A stretch of DNA of 32,000 nt from Acholeplasma laidlawii PG-8A (lineage in GTDB: Bacteria; Bacillota_I; Bacilli_A; Acholeplasmatales; Acholeplasmataceae): NCBI RefSeq assembly GCF_000018785.1, contig NC_010163.1, forward strand, positions 1,080,001-1,112,000, given 5' to 3'. The notes under the pieces are model-generated. The model was not told the origin of the DNA and did no database searches. It saw nothing but the letters and a program-made list of their open reading frames with translations. This document shows positions 2,898-31,685 of the stretch, piece after piece. Made by a program: the position numbers and the translations under genes. The stretch's first letter is position 1, and each line of letters starts with the position of its first letter.

Positions 2898-4676
2898 TTA
2901 AAATCTCCTTTCTCTCATTTTTCTAACAACATTTATATAATCTGTATCTTTACTTTCAAATTTATGACTCCAACTCTTAATTATATCTGGATCGTTACTA
3001 TTAGGTCTTGGTTCAAATTTTTGAATTCTTACCCTGGATGGTATTTTAATTGCATCACCAACAACAATACACTCACCTATTCGTAATGTGGGGAGTAGAT
3101 CCATTAATCCAGTCATGTTGTTTGGTGCTGTAGCTTTTACTGAACTTTGATCAGACGAATTAGTCAATCTCATAGAAATTGTTGTACCAACTTGAGCAAG
3201 TATCGTATCAGAAATTTCTGATGGACGCTGAGTTACAACTGCTGCTCCAATCCCAAATTTTCTACCTTCCTTAAATATTTTTTCTACACTCTTCCTTGCA
3301 TATCCGTAAATATATCTTGAATCTTGATTTTTTGGTAAATAAGCATGTGCCTCCTCAAACACCATTAATATAGGACGTGCTCTACCAGTATAATCTTCAT
3401 CTTTACCCCAAAACATACTATCATATACAATTCTATTTATTAGACCTATCGAAATATCCATCAGCTCATAAGGTATGCCACTTAAATCTAATATCGTCAA
3501 TCTTTTTTCATGTCCCATCCATTCAATAATCAAGTCATTCAAGTCCTTATTTTCTCCATCAAGATAGCCTCCAGGTTTAAACATAAAGTCATATTTATTA
3601 TCACTCAAGCGAGAAAATATTTTCTTTTCATATAAATACATGGTTTGATTCTTACTTTTATATGGTGCTTTAGAATCAACTGTATAGGGTTGAAATTGAG
3701 CTGGTATTAGTTCAGAATAATCACCCTCATCAATGAGCATTTCATTATCTCTAGTCTGTGACACTTGGTCTGCCTTGTTATATGTCGCTATTACTTCTCT
3801 ATTAAGATTGTGCCACATTAAACGAATATCAAATGGTATTGGTGAATCTTCAGTAATATATTCCTCATTAATCGATCCGGCTTTTATTTTATCTTTATTT
3901 TCCTTTTTTAATCTTACAATTTCTTCTCTAAGTCTCTTATCTTCAGGACGTTCACTTCCTGCCTCTCTACCAACCAAAAAAAATGATAATTCATCGAAGT
4001 TCATAGCCCAATACGGAATATATAAAGGTGAGTCTGGGCTGTTTAATCTCATAACTTTCGATTTAGCTGGAAATGCAGATGAATATTCACCATGAATATC
4101 AATTAAGATTATTCTGGAGCCTTCGAATTTTTCTAGTATGCTAGAAATAACTCGTGCTGTTGTATTTGATTTACCACTACCTGTTGAACCCAATATAGCT
4201 AGGTGTCTTGAAATTATTTTTTGCAAATCCAGATAAATTGGTAGGTCATTTGAGGATGCATGGGTCCCTAGTTCTATTTGTCCAGTTGAATCAAAATCAT
4301 AAATTGACTTGATATCACTCTCTGTGACTATGTGAACCTCGTCGTTAATTGTGGGAAACACTCCAATACCCTTCTGAAAAACACCTCTACCGATTTTTTC
4401 TCCAATCAAATTTACTCTTATGTTTCTATTCACAAGATCATGATCAATTAATGTCATTTTGGTTTGGTCAACGCCTGATATATTTACAGAATCAACAACT
4501 CCAAATAACATAGTATTACCCAATGGTATTCTTACTAATGTTCCTATTTGACCGATGCGATACTGAATACCATCAATAATCGGTGATGCACTTGGAATAT
4601 CATTTGAGATTCTTACATCAATTTTCCCACTATCTACATTAGTGATAAATCCTATAAAGGTGATTTTTTTATGCAT
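2898..4676 (-). CDS. herA: HerA-like (DUF87) ATPase of a SIR2-HerA anti-phage system
   Basis: Walker A GSTGSGKSNT, HerA-type Walker B region IILIDIHGEY, and C-terminal GIGAAVVTQRPSE. I prefer the ATG at 4674-4676 (GGAGGAG 6 nt upstream) over the TTG at 4691 used by the track. It overlaps the SIR2 stop by 8 nt (ATGCATAA). Confidence 0.85.
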   Translation of the reverse strand: MHKKITFIGFITNVDSGKIDVRISNDIPSASPIIDGIQYRIGQIGTLVRIPLGNTMLFGVVDSVNISGVDQTKMTLIDHDLVNRNIRVNLIGEKIGRGVFQKGIGVFPTINDEVHIVTESDIKSIYDFDSTGQIELGTHASSNDLPIYLDLQKIISRHLAILGSTGSGKSNTTARVISSILEKFEGSRIILIDIHGEYSSAFPAKSKVMRLNSPDSPLYIPYWAMNFDELSFFLVGREAGSERPEDKRLREEIVRLKKENKDKIKAGSINEEYITEDSPIPFDIRLMWHNLNREVIATYNKADQVSQTRDNEMLIDEGDYSELIPAQFQPYTVDSKAPYKSKNQTMYLYEKKIFSRLSDNKYDFMFKPGGYLDGENKDLNDLIIEWMGHEKRLTILDLSGIPYELMDISIGLINRIVYDSMFWGKDEDYTGRARPILMVFEEAHAYLPKNQDSRYIYGYARKSVEKIFKEGRKFGIGAAVVTQRPSEISDTILAQVGTTISMRLTNSSDQSSVKATAPNNMTGLMDLLPTLRIGECIVVGDAIKIPSRVRIQKFEPRPNSNDPDIIKSWSHKFESKDTDYINVVRKMRERRF

Positions 4677-5847
4677 CCAATTCTCCTCCAATGGTTGTAG
4701 TAATCTTTATTAAGAAATCAGTAAATATCTTAAAATCACCCAATGTAACATTCTTCATATCTGAATTTACAAACTGGTCATAGAATTTGTCTTCACTTAG
4801 ATTGTCAAAATCCCACTCAAACAGTGATCCTGATTTAATAACATGATTCGGTCCATAAACAGTGATGTTTTTATACATCACAAAATTATCTCTATTATCT
4901 AATAAAACTTTATCTTCATATACAAAGACCATTACATGAAGACGTTGATTATTTATTAAAGAAGTAAATATTACTTCATTGATATGCTGATCACTAAAAG
5001 AATAACCCTGAATTATGAACAGTGTCTCCGATTTTATTAGGAAATATTTTAATCTATCAAAATAGGTGGTGAATGGTTGTTTTCTAGATAAAGTATATTT
5101 TTCCTTTGATGGATATATTACTATCTCTTTATCACTTTCTTTCTTCAGTTCATGGTTCGATCTATAGATAACATCACCCTCACGATTTTTCTTCCAAAAC
5201 CAATTTAATGAACCATGAAGTTTCCATAACCTAACCCAATTTATTGGTAGACTTGATTCTCTCTCAATATTTTCAACACTCTCCTGATGAAAGAAACTAT
5301 GATATGATCCAATAAAACCATCAAAGTAAGGGATTTCTCTATCTTCTAGAGCCTTTTCTAATAATAAATCATAGTTCGTAGTGAAAATCTCAATTGCATT
5401 TGAATTTCTTACTGAATTTGCCCATAAAGCAAATCGCTTAAAAGCTTTAAATAAATCCTCATTACTAACAATTTCATTTTCTTTACTTGTTAACGTATTA
5501 TAAATGTCATTGCAGATATCATGATCAATAAGAGATGATTGTGCACCATTAATGCCAAATATTTCTAGTGAATCCATGTCGTTAGTTAGACTTCTAATCA
5601 TTCGAAGTGAATTGAGTATATCTTCTATTGTGGAGTAATCATTCATTTGTTTAGTTTTTTCAATAGAAATTATTTTGTCAATAGCTTCTTTATGTATACT
5701 ATTTTTACGGACACTATCAGTGAGTGCTTTGATTCCCGGCATTCCTGATGACATGGAACTCCCTGCCCCTAAAAAAACCCCCGTTTTCATATTATTCGAT
5801 AACTTATTCATTATGTTACTCAATTCTTGATACACGCTAATCTTCAT
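4669..5847 (-). CDS. SIR2-family (SIR2_2-type) NADase-like protein, partner of HerA
   Basis: GAGSSMSSGMPG, FTTNYDLLLE, KLHGSLNW and IIQGYSFSD are the SIR2_2 motif set. I prefer the ATG at 5845-5847 (MKISVYQ..., GGAG 7 nt upstream). The 34-codon extension in the track has no RBS. Confidence 0.85.
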   Translation of the reverse strand: MKISVYQELSNIMNKLSNNMKTGVFLGAGSSMSSGMPGIKALTDSVRKNSIHKEAIDKIISIEKTKQMNDYSTIEDILNSLRMIRSLTNDMDSLEIFGINGAQSSLIDHDICNDIYNTLTSKENEIVSNEDLFKAFKRFALWANSVRNSNAIEIFTTNYDLLLEKALEDREIPYFDGFIGSYHSFFHQESVENIERESSLPINWVRLWKLHGSLNWFWKKNREGDVIYRSNHELKKESDKEIVIYPSKEKYTLSRKQPFTTYFDRLKYFLIKSETLFIIQGYSFSDQHINEVIFTSLINNQRLHVMVFVYEDKVLLDNRDNFVMYKNITVYGPNHVIKSGSLFEWDFDNLSEDKFYDQFVNSDMKNVTLGDFKIFTDFLIKITTTIGGELDA

Positions 5848-6006
5848 TTTTCTTCTCCGATAAATATATTTTTGATAATTATTACTATTTAATTTGTTGT
5901 ATTTAAATATGTATAAATTTTTGAAAAATATCCTATACTTCGTTGTCAAGTATAACTACTCATAAATTTTATAGTCTTGTTTTTAGTTATAGACAAAATA
6001 TATTAC

Positions 6007-7197
6007 TTAATCCTTATAGTTATAGAAATAATATCCACTTTTTACATCATTTATATTGGTAATTTCAATAATTCTGATCCTTTTTTCTAATAACATTCTA
6101 TGAAGTAAATTATTTCCCACAGCATTTGGTATTGATTCTCCATAGTTTTTTAATAGTTTGATAGCATTATTCACTGTATCAGTTCTGACCTTTCTTTTCT
6201 TATCAAAGTTACTCCATGCAAAATATATAATGGTTGTACTTTCTATTAAATTACATGCATCAAAAATACTCTGAAAATATGAATAATCTTGTGGATTTAG
6301 TGAATGTCCATATATTAGTATGTGACCTTTAACAGCCTCTTTCAAGTTGAAACTCTCATCTCCATCATATGCATGTATTTTTCTAGCCGTCTTTGTAAAT
6401 AAGTATTTACTTTCATTTGACTTAATCCATTTTTTCGATTCTAAATCTTGTTCATCTATACCAAAAATGACTTCCTCTGAATGAATACTTCCATGAATAT
6501 TAGTCATGTTCCACTGTTTAATATCATCATAGTTTCTAGTAAATGTTGGTATACTATAGTTGAAATTAATTAGTGAAAATATTGAATCATTAACAGAACT
6601 TGCAATTTTAGAAAACTCTTTGTATAACAATGAATTTCTTCTTTCATATTTGATTTTATTTAAGCGTAATTGATTACTGACATACTCTTTAAAATCTAAT
6701 TCAATTATTTTTAATTGATCTAGAAGCCATTTATTATACTCTATTTGTGAAAAAGTCATTTCTTTCAATTCGAATGCTTTGCTTATTAAAGCAAACAATG
6801 GATTGAATGTTCTAACTAGACTGCTATAATTTTTACCTTGTTTTTGTATGTCTATTAGTGATATTTTGTTTTCTGAAATATATTCAAAAATCAGATTTTC
6901 AACATTATGCCACCCAGCATTCTTTTTAACTATTTTTTCACTAATAAAAACAACATCCCAAATGGATATCTGATCAAACAGCAAATTTATATCTGATTCT
7001 GTCATTCTATTTATAATTCTGTATATCGAATTATTCAAATTTAGCGAATTATCATAATCCATTTTAGATTGAATTTGATTAAAATAATCAATAGTAATTT
7101 GAAAATCCTCTTTACTATATCTTTGATTAAAATAATCAAGATAATCCGTTTTTAACCCACATTGAATATCAAATCCATTGCCTAAAACAAGTAGCAT
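6007..7197 (-). CDS. abiH: AbiH-like abortive-infection protein
   Basis: 396 aa. The N-terminus MLLVLGNGFDIQCGLKTDYLDYF matches the AbiH family (PF14253-type) hallmark xxGNGFDxxxGLxTxY. AAGAGGTG RBS. Confidence 0.75.
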   Translation of the reverse strand: MLLVLGNGFDIQCGLKTDYLDYFNQRYSKEDFQITIDYFNQIQSKMDYDNSLNLNNSIYRIINRMTESDINLLFDQISIWDVVFISEKIVKKNAGWHNVENLIFEYISENKISLIDIQKQGKNYSSLVRTFNPLFALISKAFELKEMTFSQIEYNKWLLDQLKIIELDFKEYVSNQLRLNKIKYERRNSLLYKEFSKIASSVNDSIFSLINFNYSIPTFTRNYDDIKQWNMTNIHGSIHSEEVIFGIDEQDLESKKWIKSNESKYLFTKTARKIHAYDGDESFNLKEAVKGHILIYGHSLNPQDYSYFQSIFDACNLIESTTIIYFAWSNFDKKRKVRTDTVNNAIKLLKNYGESIPNAVGNNLLHRMLLEKRIRIIEITNINDVKSGYYFYNYKD

Positions 7198-10097: not shown

Positions 10098-10122
10098 CAC
10101 ATATCTTATCCGGGGAGATTAG
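10098..10122. repeat. Short GC-rich repeat acatatc[ttatc]cggggagattag (copy 1, overlaps the GH94 stop codon)
   Basis: Matches 29990-30009 exactly apart from a 5-nt ttatc insertion. The GC-rich core ccgggg is unusual in this AT-rich sequence. Confidence 0.5.
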
Positions 10123-12647
10123 TCTTGTATATGTATTACATTTTGGTGTTCCAATATGGATTTATTAATATCTATATATAGTAGACCACTTAAAGTATCT
10201 AGTTTAGCTTCGATTACTTTACCATTTAATTTAAATGTTCTATTACCGTTGTTATTGTTTTTATACACGATGCGTGTAAGTTTGTTACCAATACTTACCA
10301 TCAGTGTTGCTTCTTTTGAGAAGAATGCTTTTGATGGACGAAGTCTTAGGTGATCAAACTTTACTTCAAGGCCAAATAAACCACGAATTAAAGTTTTAAG
10401 TAATGTATTTGCAGAACCTGTATACCAGTCACTCATGGACTCACCGTCCATGTTAAGCTCCTCATTGTGTACATATGAGTTTGGCATAATAAATGGTGAT
10501 GTAGACATTTCCTTTTTAGTAATAGGTAAAACTTTCAAGACTTGCTCATTAGCAAAATCTCCTTCACCTAACATATAAAGTGCTAAGACACCAAAAAGTG
10601 TTGCATGTACATAAGTTGCTGCATTTTCAGCTGTACCAGGTGGTAGGTTTATAATACGACCAAATCCGTGGAAGTCTTGCATGGCTGGATCAAATGTTTT
10701 TAGACCATATTTAGAGTCAAGATTATGGAATGCGTGTAATAAATGTGGTTTCATCTCAGGTGTATTTTTAATCATATCTGAGATGATATAAAAAGCATTA
10801 GAGGTTAAGCTATTTCTTGAGTGACCATCCGGGTCATTAAAGCTACCTACAAAGTAACTTCTGTCATGTCCCCAACCATGTAAAACGCGTTTTTCATCTT
10901 GCTTTATTACGACTGCGTATTTATTAATGCCTAAAGATAAATTATGTCTTACCACCTCATATGTGTTAATATGTTCATTTTGAGGATCAACTAGTTTTAA
11001 GATTTCAATCATGCGTTCTAAGTTTTCATATAGTTGGAGTGTTGCCATAACAGAAACACCATTACCATAACCTGAACTACCTTCAATTAAACCTAAGCCA
11101 TCAAGTGCATCATTCCAGTCTCCGTATAATGCCTTTAGGCCATATGTACTTGGATCAATATTAGACACTAAGTAATTAGTAACTCTAATTAAGTGTTCTA
11201 ATACAGAGTTTTCTACTTTAGATTTTTTAGCACTGTTTGGTTCAATACGCTCATAATACCCACATACTTCATTTAAGATATCATAATCCTCAGTATATGC
11301 TAAATAGGTATGAAGGGTTGAAATAATCCATAGACCTTGGTCAATAAATGGTCTTAAATCCATCCTCGGATTACCCTCTTTAGGAGGAAGCGCATATTGT
11401 CTAGGCGGTAATCCGGATGGATCAATAAAGGAAAGGACTTCTAATATTTTACTTCTTACATTTTTTCTATCCCAAATCAGTGATGATTCTAATTGTTGCA
11501 TAACATCTCTAACACCTAAAAATACGGTACCTGAGTTTGAAGATAGGGATGAGAAGTGTATTTGGTAATTAACTAACTTTAAAAACTGATTTAAGACTTT
11601 ATCATCTACTCGATTGTCATTTACACCTTTAAAGGAGATGCCAAAGTTATCAAAATCATAACTTTGAGTATTAGATAAACCTTCATATACTTTTTTAATT
11701 TCTTTATCAGTTAAATCAGATGCCATCATCTTATTTAATGTATCTTTATCGTGGCATGTTTCAATACGGTAACTACTAATGATGGTATCATAGGCTTTCA
11801 CTTCGTAGTTAATTAAATCAGCATTAATTGCAGTATCTGTAAAATTTGTAACAAGGGGTGCTTTTTCAAATTTTAGACTTCGAATGCTTAAAGCATTACG
11901 AACTGATCTATAACGTTTACCTACATAATCAATTCTTGAAGTTGTATTTTGAATGTTTTTAGGTTTTGTATGAAGATGTCTTTTAACCACACCATAATTT
12001 TCAATTCTGGTGTGTCTATCAATATCTTCTGGTGCATCATATATAAACATGTTATTTTCATAACTTACCTTTTTAAACCATTTTGTTTCAATACTTTCAC
12101 CGCTATCATATTTAAATAGCATATTAAAGAATGATGAAAGTGTAATTTGTTTGGTCTCTCCTGTTAGGTTGTGTGCTACTGTATTAAAGTAAATTTTAAA
12201 GTCTTTACTAATATAGACTGTAACCGCATATAAGAAGTTCTTAGTAACTGTAATATAGTAAGCTATATTTTTACTAAACACTGTGTAACGTTTATTTTCT
12301 ATTTCATCATTACGCTCTGATACACCTAGTAAAGACACAGGATATGTGTTGTTACCATCTTGTTCAATTCCAAAAAAATCTAAAAATGGTTCTTTACCTT
12401 CTAAATTTGGCGGTAGTATATAGTAAGATGAATGGTTTATTGAAATATAACCTGATGCATATGCCCAAATGGTCATACCATTTACGGCATATGGAAACCT
12501 AGCTCCACTATTGACAGGATCTGTTATAAGTGTTAATTCATCATCTAAGTAGTAAGCACCACTAGCAAGCTTTGTAATATTTAATTGGCCACTTTCAAAA
12601 AGTGAAATTTTTTGATAAATACTGATTACATCTTGTTTAAGTTTCAT
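10119..12647 (-). CDS. GH94-like glycoside phosphorylase, probably a beta-1,3-gluco-oligosaccharide (laminaribiose-type) phosphorylase by context
   Basis: 842 aa. LYGDWNDALDG (the GH94 catalytic DWND region) and C-terminal YTGSANTLLKTLIRGLFGL. Neighbours are GH16, a phosphohexomutase and a sugar ABC transporter. Substrate specificity is inferred. Confidence 0.7.
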   Translation of the reverse strand: MKLKQDVISIYQKISLFESGQLNITKLASGAYYLDDELTLITDPVNSGARFPYAVNGMTIWAYASGYISINHSSYYILPPNLEGKEPFLDFFGIEQDGNNTYPVSLLGVSERNDEIENKRYTVFSKNIAYYITVTKNFLYAVTVYISKDFKIYFNTVAHNLTGETKQITLSSFFNMLFKYDSGESIETKWFKKVSYENNMFIYDAPEDIDRHTRIENYGVVKRHLHTKPKNIQNTTSRIDYVGKRYRSVRNALSIRSLKFEKAPLVTNFTDTAINADLINYEVKAYDTIISSYRIETCHDKDTLNKMMASDLTDKEIKKVYEGLSNTQSYDFDNFGISFKGVNDNRVDDKVLNQFLKLVNYQIHFSSLSSNSGTVFLGVRDVMQQLESSLIWDRKNVRSKILEVLSFIDPSGLPPRQYALPPKEGNPRMDLRPFIDQGLWIISTLHTYLAYTEDYDILNEVCGYYERIEPNSAKKSKVENSVLEHLIRVTNYLVSNIDPSTYGLKALYGDWNDALDGLGLIEGSSGYGNGVSVMATLQLYENLERMIEILKLVDPQNEHINTYEVVRHNLSLGINKYAVVIKQDEKRVLHGWGHDRSYFVGSFNDPDGHSRNSLTSNAFYIISDMIKNTPEMKPHLLHAFHNLDSKYGLKTFDPAMQDFHGFGRIINLPPGTAENAATYVHATLFGVLALYMLGEGDFANEQVLKVLPITKKEMSTSPFIMPNSYVHNEELNMDGESMSDWYTGSANTLLKTLIRGLFGLEVKFDHLRLRPSKAFFSKEATLMVSIGNKLTRIVYKNNNNGNRTFKLNGKVIEAKLDTLSGLLYIDINKSILEHQNVIHIQD

Positions 12648-24152: not shown

Positions 24153-26294
24153 TTAAGCTATTTTAGCATCTATTAAACTTAAGTGTTTATCATTTAGATT
24201 TAGTGCATGATAAAGTTTTATCACAGCAACATAATACCTGATTTTATCTCTGTTTGTTAAACCTTGGTAGATTTCAATGTTTTTCTTGGCTTGATCTTTT
24301 TCGTTTTTAGATACAGACTTTTCATAGTCATGTTTATGGTGTGTTGCAGATAAATATCTATAGATATCATGAACACTCTTAAACTCAGAGATGGTAAAGG
24401 ATTTATCTAATAACTTTTGGTTTATGAGATAATCATAGTCCCTATCCATATTAAACCCACCTGCAGAACCACCTGATAAATAACCTGCAATCCGGTTTCT
24501 TTTTTCATTAAATGCCACATCTAATGTCACCTTTAATGTATGTTGGATAAAGTATCTAAATGCTTGCATATAGATATCTATATTAGGGTTTGTCTCTTTA
24601 CCATTTAATATTTTATCAAAGTTAATGATAAGCTCTATGAGATAAGTAAGCTCATTATATAGTTTAGGGTATGCCTTATACTTAATTTTTACTTCTTCAA
24701 AGATATGATGTTGTTCCATTCTTAAATAAGTATTTGTAGGTATATAAATAATATCTTTATAGATGGACTTTTTAACACTAATTTTAATCCAGTTTTCTTT
24801 TATTTTCTTGAGTTCTTCTAATACTTCATGGTTACTATTTTTTAGATCATAAAGATAGACTAAATCTCTTGCAGTAAATAAGAGGTTATATACAATCTTT
24901 CTTGATTGTTCTAATTGATTAGTTAATAGACTTGTTAGATCTTTAATGAAGACATATTTAAAATCTAGACCCTTAGTTTCTTCTAGTGTGAGCACATTCA
25001 CACTAGAAGGCTCTACTTGGTAAACCTTCATATAACTTTTAGTTTGTAGGAATATAATAAAGTTTTTAATTGAAATATCTTTGGATATCTTCTGATAAAG
25101 ACTAATTAGTCTCATATAAGATGCCTTAGTTTGTTTATCTAAACCTAATTCATCCATCGTACGTAGCATGAAGGTTAAAAAGTTTGTTTTATCGATTAAA
25201 GGATCTTCTGCATAGTTAGATAGTCCATCCACTAATCTATCACAATCTATCATTTCTTCTTTATCTATATAATTTAATAAACCCTCTTTTTCTAGTCTTT
25301 TAATCATTGATGGTTTATCTTCATTTGATACAATCACTGCAATATCAAAAAGTTCTGTTTCAATCTCATCTTCATTTAGTTGTTTGATGGTACTTATCAT
25401 TTCTTTATAGATTTCTTCTTCACTTGAAAGTATATTTAGATTTGGTTTAAAGTGATCTTGTCTCATATATTTGATTTCTGGAATTAAGCGAGACGTATTC
25501 TTTTCAATCATACTAGCAAACCTTAATATAGATAGATTTGTCTTGTAGTTATCAACTAATACTTTTCTTTCAAAGTTCTTATCTAAATACACATCATATA
25601 AATAAGTAGACTTAATATCTATATCTTCCATTAATTGATCATCATTACCCAAAACATAAATGTTTTGGGTATTGTCAAATAACTTAAAGACAAACGCCTT
25701 ATTACCACCATAGATATCTTGTGCATTATCAATAAAGATATGGCTATACATATTATGATACTTATTTTGAAGTTCCTTATCTTCAGAAAAGAGTTTGAAT
25801 GCATAACTTACAAAATCTTCATTTAAAGAAACTTTATGTGTCTTTAAATAACTTTCATAGATATCATCTATTTTATTCTTATAATTCATAAAAATACTTG
25901 GTTTAATCTGATATGCTTCATACTGTTTCTTAGTAATCATAACCTCTTTAGTGATATCATCTTTAATCTTATCTAGTACTTCTTTGCTTAAAAACTTTTT
26001 ATTATAACCTTCATAGTCTAAAATAACCTTTAAAGCAAACATTTCCAGTGTAAAAATGGATATGTTTGAAATATCTAAAAGTTCATCTAATTTATTCATG
26101 ATATTATACATATCATTTACTGTTGTTGTAAGTATAAGTATATGTTTAGGATTTAATTTAATTTGTTTCACTAAGTAGTCTATACGTTCTACTAAAACGT
26201 GTGTCTTACCAGTACCAGCACTTCCAATTAATAAAAAATATGGTGCATCTGTTTTAATTGCGTACCTTTGATCTTCTGTGTAGTTATAATTCAT
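24153..26294 (-). CDS. UvrD/Rep-like SF1 helicase-family protein with a degenerate motif II and a C-terminal extension of about 230 aa of unknown function
   Basis: Motif I GSAGTGKTH. Motif II reads IFIDNAQD instead of DExQD. Motif VI-like region is LTLEETKGLDFKYVFI. The C-terminal region has no recognised family and contains RYLSATHH. Confidence 0.65.
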   Translation of the reverse strand: MNYNYTEDQRYAIKTDAPYFLLIGSAGTGKTHVLVERIDYLVKQIKLNPKHILILTTTVNDMYNIMNKLDELLDISNISIFTLEMFALKVILDYEGYNKKFLSKEVLDKIKDDITKEVMITKKQYEAYQIKPSIFMNYKNKIDDIYESYLKTHKVSLNEDFVSYAFKLFSEDKELQNKYHNMYSHIFIDNAQDIYGGNKAFVFKLFDNTQNIYVLGNDDQLMEDIDIKSTYLYDVYLDKNFERKVLVDNYKTNLSILRFASMIEKNTSRLIPEIKYMRQDHFKPNLNILSSEEEIYKEMISTIKQLNEDEIETELFDIAVIVSNEDKPSMIKRLEKEGLLNYIDKEEMIDCDRLVDGLSNYAEDPLIDKTNFLTFMLRTMDELGLDKQTKASYMRLISLYQKISKDISIKNFIIFLQTKSYMKVYQVEPSSVNVLTLEETKGLDFKYVFIKDLTSLLTNQLEQSRKIVYNLLFTARDLVYLYDLKNSNHEVLEELKKIKENWIKISVKKSIYKDIIYIPTNTYLRMEQHHIFEEVKIKYKAYPKLYNELTYLIELIINFDKILNGKETNPNIDIYMQAFRYFIQHTLKVTLDVAFNEKRNRIAGYLSGGSAGGFNMDRDYDYLINQKLLDKSFTISEFKSVHDIYRYLSATHHKHDYEKSVSKNEKDQAKKNIEIYQGLTNRDKIRYYVAVIKLYHALNLNDKHLSLIDAKIA

Positions 26295-26332
26295 AGAAAT
26301 TCCCCTAACTTCTATTGTTGTGTCATAGTAGT

Positions 26333-26359
26333 ATTATATCATGTTCCATATGGCATCAA
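26333..26359 (-). promoter_or_regulatory. Candidate promoter of the UvrD-like gene
   Basis: On the minus strand: TTGATG (26354-26359), 15-nt spacer, TGaTATAAT (extended -10, TATAAT at 26333-26338). Confidence 0.45.
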
Positions 26360-26529
26360 CCTTTATCAAAAGATGATATTTTTTTCTTTTGATATTCTGA
26401 AAAAACAACAAGAGCGTATATTCTAGTAACTTTTTCTCTTGTTTTATGGATGACTAAAGTATCTTAATTTATCAAATTTATTCACTTAAACATATTGCCT
26501 TAACCATATTTAATTTTGATTTATACAAT

Positions 26530-26558
26530 TTGATTAATCAAGTGTTTTATGGTAGAAT
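26530..26558 (+). promoter_or_regulatory. Candidate promoter of the sce7726-like gene
   Basis: TTGATT (26530-26535), 17-nt spacer, TGgTAGAAT (-10 at 26553-26558). AAGGAG RBS about 10 nt before the ATG at 26597. Confidence 0.5.
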
Positions 26559-26596
26559 CAATACATTAATAATCGCTAAAAGGAGTTAAAGATATC

Positions 26597-27382
26597 ATGT
26601 TTAATTTAGATACCATCAAAAATTTATATTATGTATATTCTCCTTTAAAATCAAATCGTGAGTTAGAAAAAAATTATATCACAACTACACATAATGAAGC
26701 CCCTTCAAATGTTTCCATTCGAACACATTACAATGATATAATTCTCAAAAATTTTCTAAATGAATCAGTCATAAAGGCAGCTTTTATTCAAAAATATTCT
26801 TTTCAAAAATCGCCAGATTCTAATGTCACAGCATTTGAGATTAATGTAGGTGGTAGTAGAGCTGACCTTTGCTTATTAAATGGTAAGAGTGTAGTATATG
26901 AAATCAAAACTGAATTTGATACATTTAATAGGTTAGAATCTCAACTACTAGATTACAGAAAAACTTTTGAGTATATCTACTTAATTATCCCAAAATCAAA
27001 GTTAGGAGAAGCTCTTAGCTATCTTACACCAAATGACGGCATCATTATCTATTCTCAAAATAGACATCAAAAAATCCTATTTAAAGTTTACAAAGATGCT
27101 ATAATAAATCCTCTAATTGATTCTAGATTTCAACTAGAGCAATTAACCAAAGCACAACTTTATAAACTAACAGGTGAAAAAAATGGTGATAAGAATGTAT
27201 TGGTTGATAATATCTTATCAAGTCACACTGCTGATGAAATTAACAAAATATATATTGATTTCATTAAATTGAAGTTTAAGAAAAGATGGACTTACTTATA
27301 TCATCATAGAAATCATATTAATCCCCTGGATTATCAATGGTTTTTCAAAAACAACATTGACTCAAGCATAATCTATAGATAG
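26597..27382 (+). CDS. sce7726-family-like protein with a PD-(D/E)xK nuclease-fold motif
   Basis: 261 aa. GGSRADLCLLNGKSVVYEIKTEFDTFNRLESQLLDYRKTFEYIYLIIP gives D...ExK spacing typical of restriction-endonuclease-like folds. The resemblance to the NCBIfam sce7726 family is from memory. It is adjacent to a sce7725/Beta_protein-like gene. Confidence 0.55.
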   Translation: MFNLDTIKNLYYVYSPLKSNRELEKNYITTTHNEAPSNVSIRTHYNDIILKNFLNESVIKAAFIQKYSFQKSPDSNVTAFEINVGGSRADLCLLNGKSVVYEIKTEFDTFNRLESQLLDYRKTFEYIYLIIPKSKLGEALSYLTPNDGIIIYSQNRHQKILFKVYKDAIINPLIDSRFQLEQLTKAQLYKLTGEKNGDKNVLVDNILSSHTADEINKIYIDFIKLKFKKRWTYLYHHRNHINPLDYQWFFKNNIDSSIIYR

Positions 27383-27403
27383 TAATTCTATAGATTTTTT
27401 TTT
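27371..27403 (+). terminator. Terminator hairpin shared by the convergent gene ends
   Basis: Perfect 9-bp stem atctataga (27371-27379) / tctatagat (27387-27395), 7-nt loop, then a T-run to 27403. It overlaps both stop codons. Confidence 0.6.
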
Positions 27404-28416
27404 ATTTGCGTCAAATATCTTAACATAGTATAGTAATTCCATATTGCCCAGTTTCCAAATTTTTCTTTCATGTAGTTTTCCTTCATTAGAGCATAGGCCT
27501 TACATTCACCATCAGGATCTAGTTTGTGTTCATATTTTCTAATTAATTGGTCCATGACATATTCAAAACCGCTTGCTCCTTTTTTAGAATCTACATTCAA
27601 AACAGAAAAAAATTGGTTTTGATTGTAGTCAAACATTAAAGATAAGGCTGACCCTTCACCATTGCTACCTGTACTCGGTAAAGCATTTTTATATCCAAGA
27701 TAGTCAGCTACTCCATCAAAATTATATTCATCATAGTTTTTTAAGATGCTGTTATCTATCAAATCTGTAAACACACCATCTTTAAAACTTCTATTTGCTA
27801 TGCTCTCCTTTCTTGGCGAGTGCAGAATTATATTTTGATATTGTCCAGTCCTATTGTTTAAATCTTCAATATCAAAACAGTATGGTTCAATGGATTCTTC
27901 ATTGATATCAAATATGAATAAATCGCTTCGTCTTAATATGTTATCCAAATTAGTAAAGTGTTTTTGAAATTTATCAGCTGCTATTCTTATGGCGATAGTA
28001 TTCGTAAATTTCTGTAGTTCTGTTACAAAATCCACCAATAAGTTGGAGTCATCAAAATACTCTCTAACACCCTTCACCGATATTACTGGCACGCCATAGT
28101 TAGATAGCGCTACTTTTTTCAGCATTTCAAAATATTCTTTGTGAGTAGATTTTCGATTTTCGAACGAGAAAGTTAGTTTTTCGTTATCTTTGTATCTATA
28201 CTCATTCTCAGCGAAAACAAATACATCAATGAAATATTGATAACCAAGATTTTCATCATAGTATTCAAGCAACTCATCAAATGAGTTTACTTTTTTATTG
28301 ATTTTATCAAATATGACTTCTATTATCGGTGCAATATTACCACCAAATAAATCTCTATACTCTGTAAAAATTTTGTTTTCATACATTCTATTTTTCATAA
28401 CTGGCAAATAAATCAT
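27388..28416 (-). CDS. Beta_protein (PF14350-type) / sce7725-family-like protein
   Basis: 342 aa. The N-terminus IYLPVMKNRMYENKIFTEYRDLFGGNIAPIIEVI fits the family pattern Y-x-P-x-x-K-x-[KR]-x-x-E ... P-[LI]-I-E-V. AAGGAGGA RBS. It is the third gene of the HigB operon. Confidence 0.6.
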   Translation of the reverse strand: MIYLPVMKNRMYENKIFTEYRDLFGGNIAPIIEVIFDKINKKVNSFDELLEYYDENLGYQYFIDVFVFAENEYRYKDNEKLTFSFENRKSTHKEYFEMLKKVALSNYGVPVISVKGVREYFDDSNLLVDFVTELQKFTNTIAIRIAADKFQKHFTNLDNILRRSDLFIFDINEESIEPYCFDIEDLNNRTGQYQNIILHSPRKESIANRSFKDGVFTDLIDNSILKNYDEYNFDGVADYLGYKNALPSTGSNGEGSALSLMFDYNQNQFFSVLNVDSKKGASGFEYVMDQLIRKYEHKLDPDGECKAYALMKENYMKEKFGNWAIWNYYTMLRYLTQIKKNL

Positions 28417-28434
28417 TTTAAAATCCTCCTTTTA

Positions 28435-29472
28435 CTATTTTTTTAAGTGATTCATTTCATTGTATTCAATTAATTTATCATGTTGTAAAAAAGACACAAC
28501 AATACCTGGTATTACTTTATTCTTCTTTGAAAAAATAATTATTTCTTCATCACTGAAATTACGTTTTTGAGTAAATTGACTATAAAGTTCCTTATCAATT
28601 AAAAATTCTTTTGCCTGTTTATTCGCCAACTCTTCCACTTCTTGTTCATCATCAAGAGTTATATTGTACTTATCTTTTCGAATATCATTATTTTTAATAT
28701 GTATGAGTTCATGAATCAATGTAAAATAATATCTATCAATTTGCTTATATCTATCAGACAACAAGATAAGCGGTCTTCCATGATAATCCCTAACGGCTCC
28801 ACGTATTTTAGCATTAGGAATTGATTCGTAAAAGACAACTAGTATACCCAATCTATTGGCAAATTTGGTAATGTTTTGTTTAGCAAGTTCAAAATCTTTT
28901 GTGTAGATCAAGTTCTTTATCATGTGAAATTTTCGTAAGAAATTGTCATGATTAAATTCAGGTAAATTTTCAATATCATTTTGCAACTCTATTTCCTGTT
29001 CAGCCAATTTTACCCACAATAATATTGCTTCTCTTGTTCCTCCATCTTCATGGAAACTATATTCTATTTGATTAAATAAACCATCAATTTCTTTTACTGA
29101 TGAAATACCCATTATGCTCAACAATGAGGTGATTTGTTCTTTAACTGACAGTTCCATACCTTTAAATATATGTTTGAGTTGGTATTTTCTAACAATTTCC
29201 ATAGCATCATGGGTGTCATTCGATTCCATTCTTAATAGATGTAATCTATGTGCAACTTCTAGATCCATCCAAAATTCAGCTTTTACTCCTTTGAATACTT
29301 TTTCCAGTTTAAGGGCGAACTCTTCTGTCAATTTAACCTTACCGTTAATTACATTTGAGATATGTCTTTGACTACTCTCAGTGATAGCTGCAAGTTCTTT
29401 TTGAGTAATATTATTTGACTCCATATATTCTTTAAGTATATTACCAGGAGAAACCATAAAATTAAAATTCAT
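28435..29472 (-). CDS. HigA-like XRE-family HTH fused to an ImmA/IrrE (M78) zinc metallopeptidase domain
   Basis: N-terminal SPGNILKEYMESNNITQKELAAITESSQRHISNVINGKVKLTEEFALKLEKVF is a HigA-type HTH. C-terminal FTLIHELIHI provides the HExxH of M78. I prefer the ATG at 29470-29472 (AAAGGA 7 nt upstream) over the TTG at 29493. Confidence 0.8.
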   Translation of the reverse strand: MNFNFMVSPGNILKEYMESNNITQKELAAITESSQRHISNVINGKVKLTEEFALKLEKVFKGVKAEFWMDLEVAHRLHLLRMESNDTHDAMEIVRKYQLKHIFKGMELSVKEQITSLLSIMGISSVKEIDGLFNQIEYSFHEDGGTREAILLWVKLAEQEIELQNDIENLPEFNHDNFLRKFHMIKNLIYTKDFELAKQNITKFANRLGILVVFYESIPNAKIRGAVRDYHGRPLILLSDRYKQIDRYYFTLIHELIHIKNNDIRKDKYNITLDDEQEVEELANKQAKEFLIDKELYSQFTQKRNFSDEEIIIFSKKNKVIPGIVVSFLQHDKLIEYNEMNHLKK

Positions 29473-29489
29473 TATTATATCCTTTCTGC

Positions 29490-29801
29490 TCAATGAGTAT
29501 CAACTATATCGAGTATCAATATCTCATCAATATCATTCTCATCTAGTTTACTTTCATCTGGTACAGTAAAAATAAGACGATAATTTCTAGATAGGTCAAT
29601 CGACCAACAACCTTCGTACTTTCCAGTTAACTTATGTTTCCTGGGAGGAGGATTGTGAGAGATTAGCGATAAATTTCTAACAGCACGTAACTCGGTTAGT
29701 CTAGAAATAAGATTACTATAAAGTGGTGCATAGTACTTTTTTATTAATCTATCATTAGTCAATATTTTTGCCAATTTATTTGTATTGAAATTGATTATCA
29801 C
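29490..29801 (-). CDS. higB: HigB-type toxin (plasmid-maintenance killer protein / RelE superfamily)
   Basis: 103 aa. KHKLTGKYEGCWSIDLSRNYRLIFTV ... ILILDIVDTH matches the HigB (PF05015-type) pattern. GTG start at 29799-29801 with TAGGAGGGG 6 nt upstream. The toxin-first gene order is typical of higBA. Confidence 0.8.
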   Translation of the reverse strand: MIINFNTNKLAKILTNDRLIKKYYAPLYSNLISRLTELRAVRNLSLISHNPPPRKHKLTGKYEGCWSIDLSRNYRLIFTVPDESKLDENDIDEILILDIVDTH

Positions 29802-29827
29802 CTATTGCCCCTCCTATCTACCCTTAC

Positions 29828-29856
29828 ATTATAATTGATTATACATATTAAGTCAA
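29828..29856 (-). promoter_or_regulatory. Near-consensus sigma-70 promoter of the higB operon, with an embedded inverted repeat
   Basis: On the minus strand: TTGACT (29851-29856), 17-nt spacer, TATAAT (29828-29833). TATAAT-ca-ATTATA inverted repeat: its downstream arm ATTATA overlaps the -10 hexamer by 4 nt, the upstream arm lies in the spacer. It is a possible HigA operator. Confidence 0.6.
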
Positions 29857-29896
29857 TATAAATAGTAATTAAGGGTAATATTAATTTTGACATAAA

Positions 29897-29930
29897 TAAA
29901 AGCCTTGAATCTAAATAGATACAAGGCTTT
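29897..29930 (-). terminator. Hairpin insulating the higB operon from flotillin read-through
   Basis: 10-bp stem aaaagccttg (29897-29906) / caaggctttt (29921-29930) with a 14-nt loop and flanking A/T runs. Confidence 0.5.
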
Positions 29931-29989
29931 TACATTAGTGGTTGAAGTTTATTTAAAACCTTATCCCCACTATGAATATAATTCAGATC

Positions 29990-30009
29990 TACATATCCGG
30001 GGAGATTAG
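29990..30009. repeat. Short GC-rich repeat acatatccggggagattag (copy 2, intergenic)
   Basis: See 10098-10122. It is followed by the palindrome attagctaat. Confidence 0.5.
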
Positions 30010-30208
30010 CTAATGATCTCAATTATACTTTGGTTTTTCAATAAAGATTTAAATGTAATTTTAAAGCGTTTTCACAACACAGATATCATTATAACAAACT
30101 TTTTATGTTTTGTTAAGCCATTATCGGTATATTGGTTGTTTTTATCAAGATTATGAAAAAATTGTAAGTTTAGATATGTTTTTGAGTGAATATTGATTAA
30201 AATAATCA

Positions 30209-30241
30209 AACCTGAGCTAAGTTTCAGGCTTAACTCAGGTT
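30209..30241 (-). terminator. Probable terminator of the flotillin gene
   Basis: Stem aacctgag (30209-30216) / ctcaggtt (30234-30241), about 20 nt downstream of the stop at 30261. A T-rich tract follows on the minus strand. Confidence 0.5.
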
Positions 30242-30260
30242 GATTGTTTGATTATTAGTT

Positions 30261-31685
30261 TTACTTTTTATCTTTTTCAGTTTTTGGTTCTACTGGTTTT
30301 GAAGTGAGTTTACCCGATGCATATCCTGCTAACAACGAGGTTAGATCAATACCAGTTGATTCTTGAATAGATGATAAGATTTGAGTGGATGAATTAACGA
30401 TATCTCCAACTAACTTAGTAGAGTTACCATCACCATACATAGTGATTTTATCTACTTTAGCAAGTGGTGATGCTGCAGCACCAACAATCTTAGGTAATAC
30501 ATCAGAATTTAAGATTAATTCTAAGACCGCTGCATCTTCCATTAACTTCATCGCTTCTGCTTTTTTCTCAATCGCTTCAGCTTCTGCAAGACCTACCGCT
30601 TGAATACCCTGTGCACGTTGTTCTTCAGCAAATCTTTGAGCTTCAGCAGCTACTTTAATAGACTCAGCTCGTTTAGCTTCTTCAATATATTTAGCTTCAG
30701 CTTCTTTAGAACGAATATAAAGATCAGCTAAAGCCTTTTGTTCAGCAGCATAGCGTTTCGCATCCGCGTCTTTTCTAACGACTGCATCTAAACGTTTTTC
30801 TTCAACTTCAATTTCTTTTTGTTTTAATTCAATCTCTTTTGTACGTTTAGCAATCTCTGCTTCTTGAATTGCGATATTTACACTCTTAGATTCATTAGCA
30901 CTTTGAATTTGATACGCAGCATCTGCTACCGCTTTTTGTGTATCAGATTTTTGTTTTAAAGCTGATTGACGTAATTCTAAATCTGTATTTTGCTCAGCAA
31001 TTTTTAACTCAGCAGTAATTCTTGCTTCGTTGGCTAATTCTTTTGCTTGCGCTGTTGCAATCTCTACATCTTTTTCAGAGTTTGCACGGGCAATAGAAGC
31101 TTCTTTTCTAATTTGAGTAACATTATCAACCCCAAGGTCTTCAATGACACCATTTTTATCACTAAAGTTTTGAATGGTGATATTAATGATTTCAAGACCC
31201 ATACGGTTCATATCTTGCATTGCAGAGTTATATACTTGTTCTGCAAACTTTTCTCTGTTTTGAACAAGTTCTTTTAACTTCATTTGACCAATGATTTCAC
31301 GCATGTTACCTTCTAATATTTCTTTAGTAACTACACGTATACCTTCTAAGTCTCTAGATAAAAGAATTTGACCAGCTAAACGGATTGAGTCTTCATCTGT
31401 CATAATACGGATGTTTGCTACCCCATCTACAAAGATATTGATAAATTCATTTGTAGGTACAGCAGAATCTGTTTTAATATCTGTTTGAATTAATGATAAT
31501 GGGATCGCATCAATTCTTTCTAAGAATGGAATACGTAATGTACCCTTTCCTATAACTACTCTTGACTTCTTAGGTCCTGTAATAATATATGCTTGGTTTG
31601 GTTTAACCTTAACATAGGATGCTGCAAATAAAACGATCAAAATGACCACAACGGCAATAGATATGCCGATGATGAGTTCTTCCAT
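30261..31685 (-). CDS. floT: Flotillin (SPFH/band-7 domain, FloT/YuaG-like)
   Basis: N-terminal TM helix, SPFH core (VKPNQAYIITGP..., NREKFAEQV), a long Ala/Glu-rich coiled coil, and a C-terminal PLAKVDKITMYG segment like B. subtilis FloT. I prefer the ATG at 31683-31685 (AGAGGGGAAAG RBS). The 23-codon extension in the track is unlikely. Confidence 0.85.
   Translation of the reverse strand: MEELIIGISIAVVVILIVLFAASYVKVKPNQAYIITGPKKSRVVIGKGTLRIPFLERIDAIPLSLIQTDIKTDSAVPTNEFINIFVDGVANIRIMTDEDSIRLAGQILLSRDLEGIRVVTKEILEGNMREIIGQMKLKELVQNREKFAEQVYNSAMQDMNRMGLEIINITIQNFSDKNGVIEDLGVDNVTQIRKEASIARANSEKDVEIATAQAKELANEARITAELKIAEQNTDLELRQSALKQKSDTQKAVADAAYQIQSANESKSVNIAIQEAEIAKRTKEIELKQKEIEVEEKRLDAVVRKDADAKRYAAEQKALADLYIRSKEAEAKYIEEAKRAESIKVAAEAQRFAEEQRAQGIQAVGLAEAEAIEKKAEAMKLMEDAAVLELILNSDVLPKIVGAAASPLAKVDKITMYGDGNSTKLVGDIVNSSTQILSSIQESTGIDLTSLLAGYASGKLTSKPVEPKTEKDKK

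Follow-up and report, generated by a model that had tools for sequence, protein, structure and literature searches.

A probable PD-lambda-2/gop-beta-cII-type conflict cassette of four genes, with convergent Beta and cII genes sharing a hairpin, in Acholeplasma laidlawii

The window analysed here, a stretch of 32,000 nucleotides of Acholeplasma laidlawii PG-8A (contig NC_010163.1, positions 1,080,001 to 1,112,000), carries four adjacent genes that probably make up one conflict cassette of the PD-lambda-2/gop-beta-cII type, toxin-antitoxin-like in its composition and anti-phage in its role. Three of the genes form an operon on the minus strand and encode, in order of transcription, a HigB-like protein, a HigA-type helix-turn-helix (HTH) protein fused to an M78 metallopeptidase, and a Beta-family protein. 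The fourth, encoding a nuclease-type protein of the cII/sce7726 family, lies on the plus strand and converges on the Beta gene. By analogy with the related systems of E. coli, the cassette would most likely act by abortive infection, each single step of the mechanism proposed below being rated much lower than the identification of the cassette itself. The unit extends from about 26530 to 29856, beyond the bounds set in an earlier note on this DNA, from which the HigB-like gene is absent.

The minus-strand genes have the composition and order of a published defence system. PD-lambda-2 of E. coli ECOR42 (Vassallo et al. 2022) protects E. coli against lambda-vir and consists of a HigB-like protein, a HigA-like HTH protein carrying a fused peptidase, and a third protein akin to an antitoxin of phage P4, the Pfam content of components A, B and C being PF09907, PF06114 and PF14350, respectively (PMC9519451). 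The equivalent of component A in the window is a HigB/RelE-like small protein of 103 aa (29490..29801, minus strand), that of B is the HigA-type HTH protein fused to an M78 (ImmA/IrrE) peptidase (28435..29493, minus strand; 352 aa from a TTG start, or 345 aa from an ATG at 29472), and that of C is the 342-aa Beta protein (27388..28416, minus strand); A is thus the first gene, B a fused HTH-M78 protein and C the third gene of the same operon. The HigB-like open reading frame (ORF) overlaps the start of the HTH::M78 ORF, which ends 18 nt upstream of Beta with an AGGAGG Shine-Dalgarno sequence in between, and a consensus scan places a promoter-like site (TTGACT-17-TATAAT, 11 of 12 matches; 29828..29856, minus strand) about 27 nt upstream of the HigB-like start. 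Beta is the last gene of this operon.

The product of the second gene is matched by the PADLOC model PD-Lambda-2_B with an E value of 1.2e-26 over residues 16-346. The protein contains HTH_3 (40.1 bits) and Peptidase_M78 (35.2 bits) domains, reaches 48.9 bits against the HigA model TIGR02607 (cutoff 47.7), and shows a weak match to the PADLOC capP model. All 19 unique HTH::M78 homologues compared retain the HExxH motif (H261, E262 and H265) and E287. The link to an HTH::M78 regulator, which had been called unusual, is accordingly that of PD-lambda-2 as published, where a HigB-like protein, a HigA-HTH::peptidase and Beta belong together (PMC9519451). The small protein upstream scores 27.3 bits against PF05015 (gathering threshold 27) and 24.3 bits against TIGR02385 (RelE_StbE), which is under the cutoff of that model, and is matched by phrog_3066, 'toxin of TA system', at 2.5e-9. 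Among its homologues R34, H56 and R75 are conserved, and the C-terminus reads D-T-H in the window and D-Y-H in most others. We take these conserved residues to resemble the catalytic residues of HigB.

The plus-strand gene (26597..27382) encodes a protein of 261 aa, and a promoter-like site with an upstream TG (TTGATT-17-TAGAAT; 26530..26558, plus strand), also from the consensus scan, lies about 40 nt before its start. Its placement in the sce7726 family with a nuclease-type D...ExK signature, proposed in the earlier note, is borne out by several models: NF033832 (sce7726) matches it with 119.8 bits against a cutoff of 70, the PADLOC 'cll' model of gop-beta-cII matches at 2e-18, phrog_984 matches as well, and PF26915 (Phage_P4_cII) is recorded for an identical metagenomic protein and for all 34 homologues found. 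A direct BLASTP comparison with P4 cII gives 26% identity and an E value of 3e-12. R88, D90, E102, K104, D108, R112 and Q116 are invariant in an alignment of 33 cII sequences that includes P4 cII and the proteins of four proteobacterial plasmids. The AlphaFold (AF2) model of the protein (predicted local distance difference test, pLDDT, 94.6) has an alpha/beta core between helical N- and C-terminal regions, and its best folds in the PDB are 3dnx (E 1.4e-4), presumably a PD-(D/E)xK protein, and SfsA (E 7e-3), followed by weaker matches to NucS/EndoMS and EcoT38I. A restriction-endonuclease-like, PD-(D/E)xK fold fits these structural matches of the model.

The 342-aa protein, the equivalent of PD-lambda-2C and of P4 beta, is more divergent. 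It reaches 20.7 bits against Pfam Beta_protein (PF14350), vs a gathering threshold of 27, and does so with its N-terminal half only; homologues of it at 43% and 34% identity exceed that threshold. A direct BLASTP comparison with P4 beta was not significant, so that homology to P4 beta had to be sought with a family profile. A word-indexed search returned five relatives, and a profile search of 1.84 billion representative proteins returned 247 Beta clusters at E <= 1e-3. Of 119 full-length family members, 90 match PF14350 (E <= 1e-3), the PADLOC PD-Lambda-2_C models match 41, 15 and 5, and the PADLOC 'beta' model matches 18. When the family profile is aligned with P4 beta by hhalign, a probability of 97.3% and an E value of 2.5e-11 are obtained over 317 columns. 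The sequence profiles thus identify the protein as a true but distant member of the Beta family, nearer to PD-lambda-2C than to P4 beta. The assignment to Beta_protein made in the earlier note therefore holds at the level of the superfamily and falls short of the Pfam threshold, and membership of sce7725 has to be given up, the 342-aa protein having no match to NF033831 or to any other NCBIfam model; 15 of the 119 relatives do match NF033831, weakly (best E 8.9e-7).

The AF2 model of the Beta protein, with a pLDDT of 97.4 and a predicted TM-score of 0.94, shows alternating strands and helices and predicts a (beta/alpha)8 TIM barrel. All leading matches of this model in a Foldseek search against the PDB are TIM barrels (TM <= 0.45, E ~3e-4), among them type I dehydroquinase, GH5 and GH20 glycosidases and aldolases, none of which is close, and the guess of such a barrel in the earlier note agrees with both the model and the matches. 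PDB sequence searches returned no solved relative for either the Beta-like or the cII-like protein. Conserved throughout the family are E13, P30, E33, P110, R144, D165 and D170, to which the nearer clade adds R202 and D238. In TIM barrels the active site sits at the C-terminal ends of the strands. Judged from the secondary-structure string of the model, the polar residues E13, E33, R144, D170, R202 and D238 would mostly lie at or after such strand ends. At one related locus (the loci fetched for comparison are cited by L numbers; here L030, 152-2062), a clear Beta_protein homologue (P0098) is found tail-to-tail with an ADP-ribosylglycohydrolase (PF03747), which takes the place of cII, a pairing that is possibly a hint at the chemistry of the Beta barrel.

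Both convergent ORFs are present at the coordinates of the earlier note, and so are the motifs quoted there, GGSRADLCLLNGKSVVYEIKTEFD in the 261-aa protein and MIYLPVMKNRMYENK...APIIEV in the 342-aa protein. The two genes meet at a junction that is compact in sequence and conserved in structure. The stop codon of the cII-like gene is TAG at 27380-27382, and that of Beta is CTA at 27388-27390, a minus-strand TAG, leaving a gap of 5 nt. Both stops are spanned by a hairpin (27370..27403 with its T-run) whose arms, AATCTATAGA (27370-27379) and TCTATAGATT (27387-27396), form a perfect inverted repeat around a 7-nt loop; the spacing and the shared perfect hairpin had been described correctly, except that the stem measures 10 bp rather than 9. 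Directly 3' of the hairpin follow seven T (27397-27403), and since this T-run comes after the stem on the plus strand, we read the hairpin as the intrinsic terminator at the end of the cII-like gene. Having just 2 G-C pairs in its stem, it escaped the consensus terminator scan. The fold of the 90-nt junction has z = -2.5 relative to shuffles. Stems of 9-12 bp that run into a stretch of T on the cII-sense strand occur at the same junction in seven lineages (the window, L004, L009, L014, L015, L026 and P4), with stem sequences that differ among most of them, and the hairpin in P4 carries an annotation as the cII terminator. The shared hairpin is more than chance, and what is conserved at the Beta/cII junction is structure, not sequence.

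The convergent layout itself had been regarded as unusual in the earlier note, and this view is not sustained by the relatives. In P4, transcription runs rightward through gop and beta and leftward through cII, and the annotated cII terminator lies between the beta stop (1718) and the 3' end of cII (1746). Four proteobacterial plasmids carry a Beta gene that overlaps a convergent sce7726 gene by 4-38 nt. Among about 18 non-redundant Beta lineages examined for a cII neighbour, cII adjoins Beta in 17, and in 16 of these 17 the two genes are tail-to-tail, with 3' ends between -41 and +38 nt apart; the tail-to-tail set comprises P4, the Escherichia phage/prophage Rac-SA53, the four plasmids and 10 lineages from metagenomes or metagenome-assembled genomes (MAGs). 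The sole lineage without cII is L030, with its convergent ADP-ribosylglycohydrolase. Rac-SA53 (L038, 2944-4579) has an IS1 element and hok/mok next to the genes annotated 'beta' and 'CII phage-like protein', which share 41 nt in a tail-to-tail overlap, and its annotation shows no gene directly upstream of beta.

All four families occur together in about 10 lineages and in three gene orders. The order of the window, with the small gene, HTH::M78 and Beta followed by convergent cII, recurs in L004-8, L009-13, L014, L024, L026 and L033 within differing flanks, which are a flotillin and a UvrD-like helicase gene in the window, DUF2130 and a sugar ABC operon in L004-8, and GlnS and others in L009-13. 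In L029 and L015/28, Beta and convergent cII come first and are followed by the small gene and HTH::M78; in L031/32, cII is divergent and lies upstream of the small gene, HTH::M78 and Beta. A linkage that survives three rearrangements argues for a functional unit. The clade of the window consists mostly of Acholeplasmataceae MAGs, and a search for related loci from one alignment gave just 5 loci, four from Acholeplasmatales and one from Lachnospiraceae. Over nine lineages the pairwise identities of the four proteins correlate with r = 0.77-0.96, to which shared phylogeny alone contributes some correlation, and all ORFs of these lineages are intact down to 26-50% identity. L015 is not a Beta/cII pair without front genes, since its HigB-like ORF runs into the end of the contig. 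A frameshift splits the HigB-like gene in both L004 and L006 (about 4010-4275), while L007, at 99.5% DNA identity, has it intact; the frameshift is either an assembly error or a recent inactivation of component A.

The front genes are also found in other company. The HigB-like/HTH::M78 pair precedes Fic in L016, a restriction S-subunit fragment in L017 and other cargo in L018 and L019, and it stands alone as a phage moron in L037; M78 genes in other formats lie beside Beta/cII in L020, L023 and L034. In a search for the native PD-lambda-2 locus of E. coli, those of the listed matches that fall on Escherichia plasmids are plain HigA, and a profile search yielded close relatives only. The picture is modular, with a conserved core of Beta and cII and interchangeable front modules, the front being Gop in P4, the HigB/HigA::M78 pair in the window, and nothing in Rac-SA53.

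The cassette can be compared with each of the systems it resembles. With PD-lambda-2 it shares the three-gene operon in the same order and the strong PD-Lambda-2_B match, and the relatives of its Beta protein match the PD-Lambda-2_C models more often than the P4 'beta' model. It differs in the tightly linked convergent cII/sce7726 gene, which lies outside the system as defined, in components A and C, which are too divergent for the PADLOC models (A belonging to PF05015 in the window and to PF09907 in E. coli), and in its host, a Mollicute of the Acholeplasmataceae rather than E. coli. With gop-beta-cII of P4 (Ghisotti 1990, cited by Rousset et al. 2022, PMC9122126) it shares the tail-to-tail arrangement of Beta and cII homologues around a cII-terminating hairpin, the 26% identity and the invariant motif of cII, and the profile-level match of Beta. 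The relation to this P4 locus suggested in the earlier note is thus supported by the BLASTP match of cII, the hhalign match of Beta and the same convergent layout. The difference lies in Gop, which is replaced upstream of Beta by the HigB-like/HigA::M78 pair, and an ORF comparison found no homologue of Gop, whether among the ORFs of the window or among those of the related loci fetched. P4 Gop, with 133 aa and two N-terminal membrane helices predicted by eye, has the appearance of a small membrane protein. That it might be a shortened form of M78 or HigB was considered and rejected, a comparison of Gop with the HTH::M78 protein and with all ORFs of the fetched loci having given nothing.

As to the NCBIfam partner families sce7725 and sce7726, the 261-aa protein is a clear member of the latter, and the PGAP annotation of plasmids shows sce7726 proteins encoded convergently with Beta-like genes; the difference is the missing sce7725 (NF033831) match of the Beta protein in the window. 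An HTH regulator combined with an M78 protease is the classic logic of ImmR/ImmA, DdrO/IrrE and CapH/CapP of CBASS. The window protein resembles these pairs in its Xre-type HTH, its M78 domain with an intact HExxH and its weak capP match, and could plausibly follow the same logic of signal-activated cleavage that relieves repression; it differs in that both domains are fused in one protein and have a HigB-like partner. Compared with canonical HigBA type II toxin-antitoxin modules, the RelE/HigB-fold small gene upstream of a HigA-type HTH gene and the toxin-first order are alike, whereas the antitoxin in the window bears a peptidase domain, the pair has two more enzymes linked with it, and in the one relative tested, PD-lambda-2 of E. 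coli, the toxicity is reversed, B being toxic and A the antidote.

The functional expectations come from E. coli. In PD-lambda-2, B is toxic alone, A neutralises B, and C, the Beta component, is required for defence (PMC9519451). The gop-beta-cII locus protects E. coli against lambda and P1, and its toxicity is set off by a phage accessory gene (PMC9122126; bioRxiv 10.1101/2023.04.06.535777). Both systems show toxin-antitoxin-like or abortive behaviour (PMC9519451; PMC9122126; bioRxiv 10.1101/2023.04.06.535777). On this model, the HigA-type HTH of component B in the window would autorepress the operon and form with the HigB-like protein a complex in which each neutralises the other, and the Beta TIM-barrel enzyme may sense a phage cue or relay it to this complex. 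The intact M78 site could then cut its partner, either its own HTH or the HigB-like protein, in analogy to ImmA/ImmR, IrrE and CapP/CapH, and the cleavage would free a growth-arresting activity. The cII nuclease, which would be expressed from its own promoter and stopped at the shared hairpin, may serve as a second effector acting on DNA or as a DNA sensor.

Several observations weigh against this interpretation. The functional data all come from E. coli relatives, to which Beta has at most 13% column identity and cII 26%. The PADLOC models PD-Lambda-2_A, PD-Lambda-2_C, gop and beta do not match the cassette proteins, and the Beta-like and HigB-like proteins have no PADLOC match even at E = 10. 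The PD-lambda-2 clone covers 228989-232396 with ORFs at 229385-232009, leaving less than 400 bp beyond the ORFs at either end, which suggests that PD-lambda-2 apparently defends against lambda-vir without a full cII gene. Homologues of sce7726/cII are, furthermore, found without a Beta gene in virulent Herelleviridae, as in Bacillus phage Grass (L039, 2492-3211), near an exonuclease gene, and about 60 further Bacillus phage records carry such homologues; their occurrence alone in these virulent phages indicates that the cII family is not defence-specific. The reported roles of Beta differ between the two E. coli systems, being that of an antidote to Gop in P4 and that of a requirement for defence in PD-lambda-2. 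The cII and operon promoters share no k-mer of at least 11 that could serve as a common operator and sign of co-regulation by the HTH protein, and the immediate neighbours are sugar-utilisation and flotillin genes, not a dense defence island.

Three alternative explanations have been considered. The occurrence of the HigB-like/HTH::M78 pair before unrelated genes and as a moron, together with that of Beta/cII without the pair in Rac-SA53 and in the proteobacterial plasmids, would also be expected if a HigBA-type addiction module, serving plasmid or island stabilisation and not defence, merely adjoined an unrelated Beta/cII unit. We regard this as unlikely in view of the co-divergence of the four genes and of their joint presence in about 10 lineages, in three orders and with varied flanks, and also because Beta is required for defence by the HigB/HigA::M78 pair of E. 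coli PD-lambda-2 (PMC9519451). Under a second alternative, the locus would belong to a degraded mobile element and be its switch for lysogeny or mobility, with the HTH::M78 protein acting as an ImmR/ImmA-like repressor and anti-repressor and with cII and Beta maintaining the element rather than defending the host. The ImmR/ImmA, DdrO/IrrE and CapH/CapP logic is in keeping with it, as are the name of cII, which is that of a clear-plaque gene of P4, the location of cII/beta beside int in P4 and their presence in Rac-SA53, and the low G+C of the region. There is, however, no integrase, recombinase, replication or structural gene at 24-32 kb of the window or in the flanks of the related loci, and the gop, beta and cII genes of P4 are non-essential and occupy a hotspot that otherwise holds defence cargo (PMC9122126), which makes such a switch quite improbable.

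A similarly low probability is given to the third alternative, in which Beta and cII would be a DNA repair or modification pair under stress-responsive HTH::M78 control, acting in the cell's own DNA metabolism, with Beta as a TIM-barrel enzyme of, for example, the AP-endonuclease- or glycosidase-like kind and cII as a PD-(D/E)xK nuclease. The conserved polar pocket of the Beta barrel would suit such chemistry, the structural matches of cII pass from 3dnx to SfsA and the NucS/EndoMS repair nucleases, its homologues lie among DNA-metabolism genes of virulent Bacillus phages, and M78 proteases of the IrrE type are known to answer DNA damage. A sporadic, accessory distribution (247 representative clusters in 1.84 billion proteins), the association with toxin-antitoxin-like genes and mobile elements, and the published anti-phage phenotypes of both related systems speak against it, and the four-gene anti-phage cassette is preferred.

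With regard to the surroundings, the proteins of the window share 99% identity with those of a matching JGI metagenome contig. The G+C content is 0.26-0.30 in the cassette and the adjacent helicase gene and 0.31-0.37 in the sugar operon and the flotillin gene on either side. The helicase gene (24153-26294, minus strand) is divergent from the cII-like gene and encodes a UvrD-like protein of 713 aa, in which an N-terminal UvrD-helicase/AAA_19 region is recognised and the C-terminal ~350 aa are without a family. Its best PADLOC matches are RTasHel and GajB, no GajA-like partner lies nearby, and it is confined to the window's own lineage, the related cassettes being without it. About 20 kb from the cassette, at 2898-7197 (minus strand), a HerA/DUF87 ATPase gene (2898..4691) overlaps the gene of a SIR2_2 protein (4669..5949) in a pair of the SIR2-HerA type, which an AbiH-family gene (6007..7197, minus strand) adjoins.

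Between the flotillin terminator and the HigB-like promoter lies a further promoter-like site (30116..30088, minus strand). The ~190 nt that follow it fold at -46.3 kcal/mol (z = -4.7 relative to shuffles), contain no ORF longer than 47 aa, and end in a 12-bp hairpin with a U-rich tail (29932-29900). The region 29893-30120 (minus strand) is a candidate small structured RNA. A search of 26000-30400 against Rfam gave no match, and among the fetched loci the region is found only in the near-identical contigs L002 and L003. A 59-nt stretch at 10107-10164, at the 3' end of a GH94 gene, is 78% identical to 29993-30050 of this region, and the similarity may reflect a short dispersed repeat.

Each of the gene families and both parent systems are already known. 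Novelty seems to lie in the combination of all four genes and its survival through rearrangements, in how general the tail-to-tail Beta/cII junction is, in the structural models and in the host being a Mollicute. PD-lambda-2 and gop-beta-cII each have a defence phenotype in E. coli and no known mechanism, and they are catalogued separately; no paper naming both PD-lambda-2 and gop was found in the literature searched. The joint presence, over deep divergence, of a PD-lambda-2 front and a P4 beta/cII back argues for a common core of Beta and cII. A more far-reaching reading, which we put forward as a tentative possibility and rather doubt, is that the two systems form one widespread superfamily whose Beta/cII core is locked tail-to-tail, with Beta as a catalytic sensor or effector acting on a new substrate, instead of an 'antitoxin', and cII as an overlooked fourth component of PD-lambda-2-type systems. 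The 3' ends or the shared hairpin might then couple the expression of Beta and cII through convergent transcription, and the front modules (Gop, HigB/HigA::M78, M78 alone or none) might set the trigger. The ADP-ribosylglycohydrolase partner of one Beta relative hints at a nucleotide or ADP-ribose-type substrate for Beta.

The present analysis nominates the cII nuclease as a candidate for a missing component of PD-lambda-2 and supplies confident models of Beta and cII together with residues for mutagenesis. Because PADLOC models recognise only two of the four cassette genes, loci of this kind are probably undercounted, and the family is here extended to the Mollicutes.

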